A stretch of DNA of 37,733 nt from Escherichia coli (GTDB taxonomy: Bacteria > Pseudomonadota > Gammaproteobacteria > Enterobacterales > Enterobacteriaceae): the NCBI RefSeq assembly GCF_003334355.1, contig NZ_QOWP01000034.1; one strand, given 5' to 3'. The position numbers and the translations under genes were made by a program. Below are positions 4,990 to 8,252 of this stretch, in pieces. The first letter of the stretch is position 1; every line of letters starts with the position of its first letter. The notes under the pieces are model-generated. The model was not told the DNA's origin. It saw only the letters and a program-made list of their open reading frames with translations, and searched no databases.

Positions 4990-5013
4990 ATGCGCCAGGA
5001 TGCAGAGGTAATC

Positions 5014-7413
5014 ATGAAGCTAACCGATGCGGATAATGCCGCCGATGGCATTTTTTTCCCCGCCCTTGAGCAAAATATGATGGGTGCGGTGTTAATTAAC
5101 GAAAATGATGAAGTGATGTTTTTCAACCCCGCCGCAGAGAAGCTCTGGGGATACAAACGTGAAGAAGTCATTGGCAATAACATTGATATGCTGATTCCGC
5201 GGGATTTGCGTCCTGCGCATCCTGAATACATTCGTCACAACCGTGAAGGCGGTAAAGCGCGTGTTGAGGGGATGAGTCGGGAGCTGCAGCTGGAGAAAAA
5301 AGACGGCAGTAAAATCTGGACCCGTTTTGCGCTATCGAAAGTGAGCGCCGAGGGGAAAGTTTATTACCTGGCGCTGGTACGGGATGCCAGCGTAGAAATG
5401 GCGCAAAAAGAACAGACCCGACAATTGATTATTGCCGTTGACCATCTCGACCGACCGGTGATTGTCCTCGATCCGGAACGCCATATTGTGCAGTGCAATC
5501 GCGCATTTACCGAAATGTTTGGTTACTGCATTAGCGAAGCCAGCGGTATGCAGCCCGATACACTCCTGAACATTCCTGAATTCCCTGCCGATAACCGCAT
5601 TCGTTTACAACAGTTGCTATGGAAAACCGCCCACGATCAGGACGAATTTCTGCTGTTGACGCGCACCGGTGAAAAAATCTGGATTAAAGCCTCTATCAGC
5701 CCGGTTTATGACGTGCTCGCGCATCTGCAGAACCTGGTAATGACTTTCTCGGATATCACCGAAGAACGGCAGATTCGCCAGCTTGAAGGCAATATTCTCG
5801 CCGCCATGTGCAGCAGCCCGCCATTTCATGAAATGGGGGAAATCATTTGTCGTAACATCGAATCTGTACTCAACGAATCGCATGTTTCGCTGTTCGCACT
5901 GCGCAACGGGATGCCGATACACTGGGCGTCATCTTCCCACGGTGCAGAAATTCAAAATGCGCAAAGCTGGTCAGCGACCATTCGTCAGCGTGATGGCGCG
6001 CCTGCGGGGATCCTGCAAATTAAAACCTCGTCAGGAGCAGAAACCAGCGCCTTTATCGAACGCGTGGCAGATATCAGCCAGCATATGGCCGCGCTGGCGC
6101 TGGAACAGGAAAAAAGCCGTCAGCATATTGAACAACTCATCCAATTTGATCCGATGACCGGTCTGCCAAATCGCAATAACCTGCACAATTACCTCGATGA
6201 CCTGGTCGACAAAGCCGTCTCTCCCGTGGTGTATCTCATCGGTGTTGACCATATTCAGGATGTGATTGATAGCCTTGGCTATGCGTGGGCCGATCAGGCA
6301 TTGCTGGAAGTGGTCAATCGCTTTCGTGAAAAACTCAAACCGGATCAGTATCTCTGTCGTATCGAAGGTACGCAGTTTGTCCTCGTGAGCCTCGAAAACG
6401 ACGTCAGTAACATTACCCAAATCGCCGATGAGCTACGGAATGTGGTCAGCAAGCCGATAATGATTGACGATAAACCCTTCCCGCTTACCTTGAGTATTGG
6501 CATCAGCTACGACCTGGGTAAAAACCGCGATTACTTGCTCTCCACTGCTCACAATGCAATGGATTATATTCGCAAGAATGGCGGTAACGGCTGGCAGTTC
6601 TTCAGCCCGGCGATGAACGAAATGGTAAAAGAGCGTTTGGTTTTAGGCGCAGCGCTGAAAGAAGCGATTAGCAATAACCAACTGAAACTGGTTTACCAGC
6701 CGCAAATATTCGCAGAAACGGGTGAACTGTACGGCATCGAAGCCCTTGCTCGCTGGCACGATCCCCTGCATGGTCATGTGCCCCCTTCACGGTTTATTCC
6801 TCTCGCAGAAGAGATTGGTGAAATCGAAAATATTGGGCGCTGGGTCATCGCGGAAGCTTGCCGTCAGTTAGCAGAATGGCGTAGCCAGAATATTCATATC
6901 CCGGCGTTATCCGTGAACTTGTCGGCGCTGCACTTTCGCAGTAATCAACTGCCTAATCAGGTGTCTGATGCAATGCACGCCTGGGGTATTGACGGCCACC
7001 AGCTGACGGTAGAAATCACGGAAAGCATGATGATGGAACACGATACCGAAATCTTTAAGCGCATTCAGATCCTGCGTGATATGGGCGTGGGCTTATCGGT
7101 AGATGATTTTGGTACGGGCTTTTCCGGATTATCCCGCTTAGTCAGTCTTCCGGTAACGGAAATCAAAATTGACAAAAGTTTTGTCGATCGTTGTCTGACC
7201 GAAAAACGCATCCTTGCCTTACTTGAAGCCATTACCAGCATTGGGCAAAGCCTCAATTTAACCGTCGTGGCGGAAGGCGTCGAAACCAAAGAGCAATTTG
7301 AGATGCTACGCAAGATCCACTGTCGCGTTATTCAGGGATATTTCTTTTCCCGCCCCCTACCCGCCGAAGAAATTCCAGGCTGGATGAGCAGCGTGTTACC
7401 GCTGAAAATCTGA
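5014..7413 (+). CDS. dosP: Heme-PAS oxygen-sensing c-di-GMP phosphodiesterase (PAS-PAS-GGDEF-like-EAL)
   Basis: 799 aa from ATG 5014 (MKLTDADNAADGIFFPALEQ...). EAL motif (YGIEALARW) in the C-terminal domain. The ORF-track start at 4990 is an upstream in-frame extension that overlaps the dosC stop. Confidence 0.93.
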   Translation: MKLTDADNAADGIFFPALEQNMMGAVLINENDEVMFFNPAAEKLWGYKREEVIGNNIDMLIPRDLRPAHPEYIRHNREGGKARVEGMSRELQLEKKDGSKIWTRFALSKVSAEGKVYYLALVRDASVEMAQKEQTRQLIIAVDHLDRPVIVLDPERHIVQCNRAFTEMFGYCISEASGMQPDTLLNIPEFPADNRIRLQQLLWKTAHDQDEFLLLTRTGEKIWIKASISPVYDVLAHLQNLVMTFSDITEERQIRQLEGNILAAMCSSPPFHEMGEIICRNIESVLNESHVSLFALRNGMPIHWASSSHGAEIQNAQSWSATIRQRDGAPAGILQIKTSSGAETSAFIERVADISQHMAALALEQEKSRQHIEQLIQFDPMTGLPNRNNLHNYLDDLVDKAVSPVVYLIGVDHIQDVIDSLGYAWADQALLEVVNRFREKLKPDQYLCRIEGTQFVLVSLENDVSNITQIADELRNVVSKPIMIDDKPFPLTLSIGISYDLGKNRDYLLSTAHNAMDYIRKNGGNGWQFFSPAMNEMVKERLVLGAALKEAISNNQLKLVYQPQIFAETGELYGIEALARWHDPLHGHVPPSRFIPLAEEIGEIENIGRWVIAEACRQLAEWRSQNIHIPALSVNLSALHFRSNQLPNQVSDAMHAWGIDGHQLTVEITESMMMEHDTEIFKRIQILRDMGVGLSVDDFGTGFSGLSRLVSLPVTEIKIDKSFVDRCLTEKRILALLEAITSIGQSLNLTVVAEGVETKEQFEMLRKIHCRVIQGYFFSRPLPAEEIPGWMSSVLPLKI

Positions 7414-7426
7414 CAAATTCCTCTCG

Positions 7427-7444
7427 CCCGCACTCGCGGGTTTT
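7427..7444 (+). terminator. Short GC hairpin plus T-tract after dosP (CCCGC-ACTC-GCGGG-TTTT)
   Basis: Read from the sequence, 14 nt after the dosP stop. The stem is only 5 bp, so strength is modest. Confidence 0.55.
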
Positions 7445-7610
7445 CATTTAACGTGACACTGTCACTTAAATACTGTGATTTCAGCTACGATTCCGGGAGA
7501 TTCCTTCCTTAACTTCCCCTCTTGCACCAAAACTGCACTACGCTGCACAAATGTTGATCAAAAGTTAAAAAATATAACTTTAAGCCAGCATTCTGGCGCT
7601 TATCCCGGCA

Positions 7611-7626
7611 TGGCATGAGATCTGCA
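7611..7626 (+). promoter_or_regulatory. Sigma-54 (RpoN) -24/-12 type promoter upstream of ddpX (TGGCAT-N5-CTGCA)
   Basis: TGGCATGAGATCTGCA has GG and GC separated by exactly 10 nt, matching the sigma-54 consensus TGGCACG-N4-TTGCA at most positions. Located 45-60 nt upstream of the ddpX ATG. A GCAC-rich cluster at 7523-7549 resembles NtrC-type enhancer half-sites. Confidence 0.6.
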
Positions 7627-7670
7627 TAAGCGGAAAGCGCAGCAATTTTTGTCTTATACAGGAACCGTTT

Positions 7671-8252
7671 ATGTCGGATACCACCGAACTGGTTGATTTA
7701 GCCGTAATCTTCCCTGATCTGGAGATCGAATTGAAATACGCCTGCGCTGATAACATCACAGGTAAAGCTATTTATCAGCAAGCGCGTTGTCTGTTACACA
7801 AGGATGCGATTACCGCGCTGGCGAAAAGTATCAGCATCGCCCAGCTGTCAGGGTTACAACTGGTGATTTACGATGCGTATCGCCCACAACAAGCACAGGC
7901 GATGTTGTGGCAAGCCTGCCCAGACCCGCAATATGTTGTTGATGTGACGGTCGGTTCTAATCACAGCCGTGGCACGGCGATCGACCTGACGCTTCGTGAT
8001 GAGCACGGGAACATCCTCGATATGGGCGCAGGGTTCGATGAAATGCACGAGCGCTCCCATGCCTATCACCCTTCCGTCCCGCCCGCCGCTCAGCGCAATC
8101 GGCTGTTGCTGAATGCGATAATGACTGGTGGCGGTTTTGTCGGTATCTCCAGCGAATGGTGGCACTTCGAATTACCCCAGGCAGCGAGTTACCCTCTGCT
8201 CGCTGATCAATTCTCTTGTTTTATATCCCCTGGCACACAGCACGTCAGTTAA
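7671..8252 (+). CDS. ddpX: D-Ala-D-Ala dipeptidase (VanX homolog, Zn-dependent)
   Basis: 193-aa ORF. The SNHSRGTAIDLT and EWWHFE segments are typical of the VanX/DdpX family. First gene of the ddp operon. Confidence 0.93.
   Translation: MSDTTELVDLAVIFPDLEIELKYACADNITGKAIYQQARCLLHKDAITALAKSISIAQLSGLQLVIYDAYRPQQAQAMLWQACPDPQYVVDVTVGSNHSRGTAIDLTLRDEHGNILDMGAGFDEMHERSHAYHPSVPPAAQRNRLLLNAIMTGGGFVGISSEWWHFELPQAASYPLLADQFSCFISPGTQHVS

Follow-up and report, generated by a model that had tools for sequence, protein, structure and literature searches.

The perfect 13-bp palindrome GTGACACTGTCAC in the dosP-ddpX intergenic region of Escherichia coli is almost certainly matS13, a MatP-binding member of the matS set of the E. 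coli Ter macrodomain. It is an already known and catalogued site and not a transcription-factor operator. The palindrome, read directly from the sequence, occupies exactly positions 7453-7465 of the window (i.e. the whole stretch of 37,733 nucleotides that was analysed). The window covers the E. coli dosP-ddpX-narZ region and corresponds to the reverse complement of approximately 1,532,839-1,570,746 in the MG1655 genome. The dyad lies 40 nt 3′ of the stop codon of the dosP-like ORF, and the ATG of the ddpX-like ORF (7671) is found 206 nt downstream of the dyad (Table 1). The initial annotation had described this dyad together with a terminator-like hairpin upstream and a sigma54-like element downstream, and both the dyad and these surroundings were confirmed. 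It had also stated that no feature explains the dyad. This holds for the RefSeq annotation, in which no feature is given here, but not for the published catalogue of matS sites, where the dyad appears as matS13. The value of the identification is mainly one of annotation: without a RefSeq feature, a reader of the sequence alone sees an orphan palindrome, and a recognised matS13 is not misfiled as a regulatory operator of ddpX.

Table 1 Coordinates of the features discussed in the text (feature, window position, strand, length, basis and remarks).
dosP-like ORF	4990..7413		807 aa	ORF list; dosP by BLAST (5,426 complete E. coli genomes)
Terminator-like hairpin, T-tract after it	7426-7441 (with T-tract to 7449)			terminator scan
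matS13 GTGACACTGTCAC	7453..7465	.		dosP-ddpX intergenic; consensus match; MG1655 NC_000913.3 1,563,282-1,563,294; published list
Sigma54-like element TGGCATGAGATCTGCA	7611-7626			2 mismatches to TGGCAC-N5-TTGCA; 146 nt downstream of the dyad
ddpX-like ORF	7671..8252		193 aa	ORF list; ddpX by BLAST (5,426 complete E. coli genomes)
matS12 GTGACAGTGTCAC	33750..33762	.		same 13-mer, opposite orientation; MG1655 1,536,807-1,536,819; published list

The motif GTGACRNYGTCAC is the recognition motif of MatP, named matS (PMC6907758 Table 2, citing Mercier et al. 2008). The dyad fits this consensus exactly, with R = A, N = C and Y = T. Mapping to MG1655 (NC_000913.3) placed the dyad and a second copy of the 13-mer in the window at the coordinates given in Table 1. 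In Supplementary file 1 of Seba et al. (2024, eLife), matS12 is listed at 1536807 and matS13 at 1563282 (PMC10945525). The 28 matS sites of that study were defined from three independent MatP ChIP-seq experiments, and the published matS sites of Ter range from 1,136,538 to 1,974,386 (PMC10945525). The coordinates that we computed in MG1655 are equal to the published ones. Therefore, the two copies are matS13 (the dyad) and matS12. The number 13 follows the 28-site scheme of 2024 and not the original 23-site list of 2008. ChIP data had been proposed as the deciding check on the dyad, and its coordinate is indeed present in this ChIP-seq-derived list. The dyad shares with the matS/MatP system of E. 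coli the 13-bp consensus, the location in Ter, the Ter-restricted over-representation and the published coordinates, and its core is identical to that of oligonucleotides used in MatP binding assays. No difference of substance was found, and the dyad is a member of this system. The sequence match, the position, the enrichment in Ter, the conservation in E. coli and the coordinate identity with the published list were established in the present analysis.

For this single 13-bp site, generic and motif-specific statistics gave opposite answers. The window contains 12 perfect dyads of any sequence with the same 6+1+6 geometry, where 9.2 would be expected, and the perfect palindromy of the dyad alone is thus not beyond chance. 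In contrast, GTGACRNYGTCAC had two matches in the window (the dyad and 33750-33762) against 0.01 expected, and none of 100 shuffles gave two matches. The former statistic is not significant and the latter is highly significant. The copy at 33750-33762 is the reverse complement of the dyad, 26.3 kb away, and is located inside a narW-like coding ORF (33260..33955), where the frame reads ...agt gac agt gtc aca.... The earlier description of the dyad as isolated has to be qualified by this identical copy in the opposite orientation.

A search of the genome for other occurrences had also been proposed. In MG1655, exact matches to the consensus were found nine times in 242 kb around dif (1,480,001-1,722,000), where 0.06 matches were expected from base composition. 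No match was found in a control sample of 250 kb outside Ter, composed of the oriC region at 3.90-4.05 Mb and of segments at 2.80-2.85 Mb and 0.40-0.45 Mb (Ori, Left and NS-right); the Ter and non-Ter samples together represent 492 kb, or about 11% of the genome. In the window and in Ter alike, this class of 13-mers exceeds expectation by a factor of about 150-200. The dif site was located at 1,590,750-1,590,777, which is 27.5 kb from matS13 and places matS13 within the Ter macrodomain, around dif. On its side of dif, matS13 is the nearest matS site. The sites after 1,563,282 were located at 1,600,472 (the next one across dif), 1,619,966, 1,630,324, 1,665,175 and 1,679,136 (with one mismatch each), and 1,704,002. 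Counting these sites onward from matS13 gives the numbers 14 to 19 and reproduces the published position of matS19, 1,704,014 being where the 13-mer at 1,704,002 ends. In the LiTer15 construct, an attB at 1,596,000 separates matS13 from matS14 (PMC10945525), in agreement with the location of these two sites on opposite sides of dif. The gene matP (b0956, annotated as ‘macrodomain Ter protein’) is located at 1,018,485-1,018,937 in MG1655, the reference strain, and is outside the window.

A check of conservation in related genomes had been proposed as well. We searched a 61-bp query centred on the dyad in 5,426 complete E. coli genomes. The stretch was present once per genome in 5,343 of them, being identical in 2,623 genomes, with one to three differences in 2,660 and with more differences in 61. 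Nine haplotypes spanning the identity range, a small sample, were then aligned. Their flanks were polymorphic at positions 7414, 7445, 7446, 7452 (which adjoins the dyad), 7472, 7483 and 7490. The 13-mer was changed only once, by an A to G substitution at the degenerate R position in strain F467, and it matched the consensus in all nine haplotypes. In a sample of this size, the conservation of the 13-mer against varying flanks is supportive rather than decisive. A chance palindrome with no function would be compatible with the expected frequency of 6+1+6 dyads in the window. However, the enrichment of the 13-mer class in the window and in Ter, its absence from the non-Ter sample, the retention of the 13-mer against a polymorphic background, and the presence of the site on the matS list of a paper that used MatP ChIP-seq to define its set all argue against such a reading, the probability of which we regard as vanishingly small. 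The motif-specific statistics and the published site list in effect refute it.

The ddpXABCDF operon was wholly absent in four of the nine aligned strains (NC101, Dog168, isolate 131 and NR2550), in which osmC directly follows dosP. In these strains, the homology to the window stops near 7491, about 26 bp past the dyad, and the 13-mer is intact. The same early-ending match pattern was observed by BLAST in approximately 1,100-1,200 of 5,392 genomes. These strains bear on another possible function of the dyad, namely that a dimeric transcription factor acting locally (CRP-like or of another kind) uses it as an operator to regulate the ddpX sigma54 promoter, instead of or besides MatP binding. 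The intergenic location of the dyad upstream of the sigma54-like element (Table 1) would suit an operator, and palindromes of this size are typical of operators. However, the 13-mer is kept where the whole ddp operon is gone along with its promoter, and a function of the dyad that depends on the ddpX sigma54 promoter is therefore disfavoured. The motif also occurs in the narW coding sequence and at seven more sites in the 242-kb Ter sample, with unrelated gene neighbourhoods. Such a recurrence fits a chromosome-wide site rather than a gene-specific one. In a full-text literature search, no paper joining MatP, matS and ddpX was found, nor anything relevant on matS with ddpX or narW. We consider a local operator highly improbable. 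The initial annotation, which likened the dyad to an operator for a dimeric transcription factor, was right in that the dyad is the site of a dimeric sequence-specific DNA-binding protein, MatP, but not in its assignment to local transcriptional control.

The resemblance to a CRP half-site that had been noted for the dyad did not hold, as no match to TGTGA-N6-TCACA with two or fewer mismatches was found at or near the dyad. A CRP operator was likewise rejected for the dosP-ddpX intergenic region as a whole at the same threshold. CRP operators are, like the dyad, palindromic with GTGA/TCAC arms. However, their arms are separated by 6 bp, whereas 3 bp separate the GTGAC arms of the dyad, and they are linked to promoters, whereas the motif of the dyad is spread over a chromosomal domain.

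A function at the RNA level was also considered, in which the dyad forms a hairpin at the 3′ end of dosP and aids termination or transcript stability. When 7405-7500 was folded as RNA, the dyad formed a stem of 5 bp closed by a loop of 3 nt. Pairing of UUUAA with UUAAA lengthened this stem, which adjoins the terminator hairpin, and the fold as a whole had a z-score of -2.4. However, the dyad is located 3′ of the terminator, hairpin and T-tract included (7426-7449), and most dosP transcripts should therefore end before the dyad. The hairpin at 7426-7441 was the only one accepted by the terminator scan. An RNA hairpin also leaves unexplained why the motif occurs in both orientations and in coding DNA across Ter. 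Furthermore, the A to G substitution in F467 weakens the symmetry of the dyad, while the DNA consensus is still fitted. An RNA-level role is extremely unlikely, even more so than a local operator. The extension of the stem uses an imperfect symmetry around the dyad (TTTAA-c-(13-mer)-TTAAA, window 7447-7470). This symmetry looks like a local coincidence, and the flanks of other matS sites in MG1655 differ. An intrinsic terminator at the dyad itself was rejected as a candidate, its hairpin (5 bp, 3-nt loop) being followed by TTAAATAC with no T-run.

For the properties of matS13 as a MatP site, the in vivo MatP occupancy, the nanomolar binding of the core and the mechanisms involving MukBEF and ZapB are taken from papers. 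The probable occupancy of matS13 in vivo is based on its inclusion in the ChIP-seq-derived list of 2024. A match to the consensus alone does not guarantee occupancy, because at least one consensus site (matS5 of Nolivos et al.) showed no enrichment (PMC4738335). In vitro, one MatP dimer binds to the matS oligonucleotide AAAGTGACACTGTCACCTT (named ‘matS19’ under the 2008 numbering) with a Kd of 15 nM (PMC6538776), and GTGACAGTGTCAC is the matS used in EMSA and tethered-particle (TPM) experiments (PMC7394560). Both oligonucleotides share an identical 13-bp core with the dyad and have other flanks; this core is the usual specific substrate for MatP in biochemical work. No matS coordinates are given in Thiel 2012 (PMC3330122).

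As a matS site, matS13 would act by binding a MatP dimer on its 13-bp palindrome, as one of roughly 23-28 such sites in the Ter macrodomain. MatP bound to matS13 and to its neighbours, including matS12, would give the roughly 0.8-1 Mb that surround dif their identity as ‘terminus’. From there, matS-bound MatP would unload or exclude the SMC complex MukBEF from Ter. It is known that MukBEF is unloaded or displaced from Ter by MatP-matS (PMC4738335; PMC8669397, cryo-EM of MukBEF-MatP-matS), and that its inhibition scales with how many matS sites there are and how densely they are spaced, their density rising toward dif (PMC10945525). The C-terminus of MatP would also join Ter to the divisome via ZapB, so that sister termini stay paired at mid-cell until division; the MatP-ZapB interaction has been reported to keep them there until the cell divides (PMC7394560; PMC6907758). 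Bridging between matS sites appears infrequent in vivo (PMC7394560; PMC6907758). Within this scheme, matS13 would contribute additively like the other sites, with no special local role.

A special role of matS13 could take several forms. MatP bound at matS13 might modulate the enhancer-dependent activation of ddpX or the read-through from dosP, or the site might have a larger share in MukBEF exclusion owing to its location near dif. The dyad directly follows the dosP terminator, and the upstream region of the ddpX sigma54 promoter, which contains TGCACC, is found about 60 bp downstream of the dyad. A local effect on ddpX is disfavoured because strains lacking ddp keep matS13, and we judge a special role of any of these kinds very unlikely. 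The NtrC consensus, taken as TGCACC-N5-GGTGCA, had no match with three or fewer mismatches in the intergenic region, and we make no claim on NtrC sites.

The SlmA-binding sites (SBS) of about GTGAGTACTCAC are, like matS, short GTGA...TCAC palindromes scattered on the chromosome, through which a dimeric protein couples chromosome position to division. They are 12 bp long with a core that differs from that of matS. SBS are depleted from Ter, whereas matS sites are confined to it, and SlmA belongs to the TetR family and has FtsZ antagonism as its output. In Bacillus subtilis, the XDS are analogous terminus sites, where the bound protein unloads an SMC complex (PMC8669397, PMC10945525). The components are XerD and Smc-ScpAB in B. 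subtilis and MatP and MukBEF in E. coli, and the sequences are unrelated. The relation between XDS and matS is therefore an analogy and not membership.

Several minor observations were also made. A perfect sigma54 core (TGGCAC-N5-TTGCA) is present at 32728-32743 (+) within a narY-like ORF (31716..33260); the total counts of this pattern were below chance expectation. A 20-mer from the dosP terminator was present in all nine aligned E. coli sequences, yet a scan of species-representative genomes gave only two chance matches in unrelated MAGs and none in Escherichia; the region is either absent from the representative or was overlooked by the scan. Strain F467, which carries the sole substitution seen in the 13-mer, also has 7 bp (TTTTCAT) duplicated in tandem within the T-tract of the dosP terminator (window 7441-7458). 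Five matches to the stretch around the dyad were found on records classed as plasmids; these may be contigs that were wrongly assigned, or plasmids that carry a piece of the chromosome. In strain CAVP880, only 7551-7700 of the window was matched and ddpX is annotated beside dosC, a pattern that suggests the loss of dosP and probably also that of matS13.
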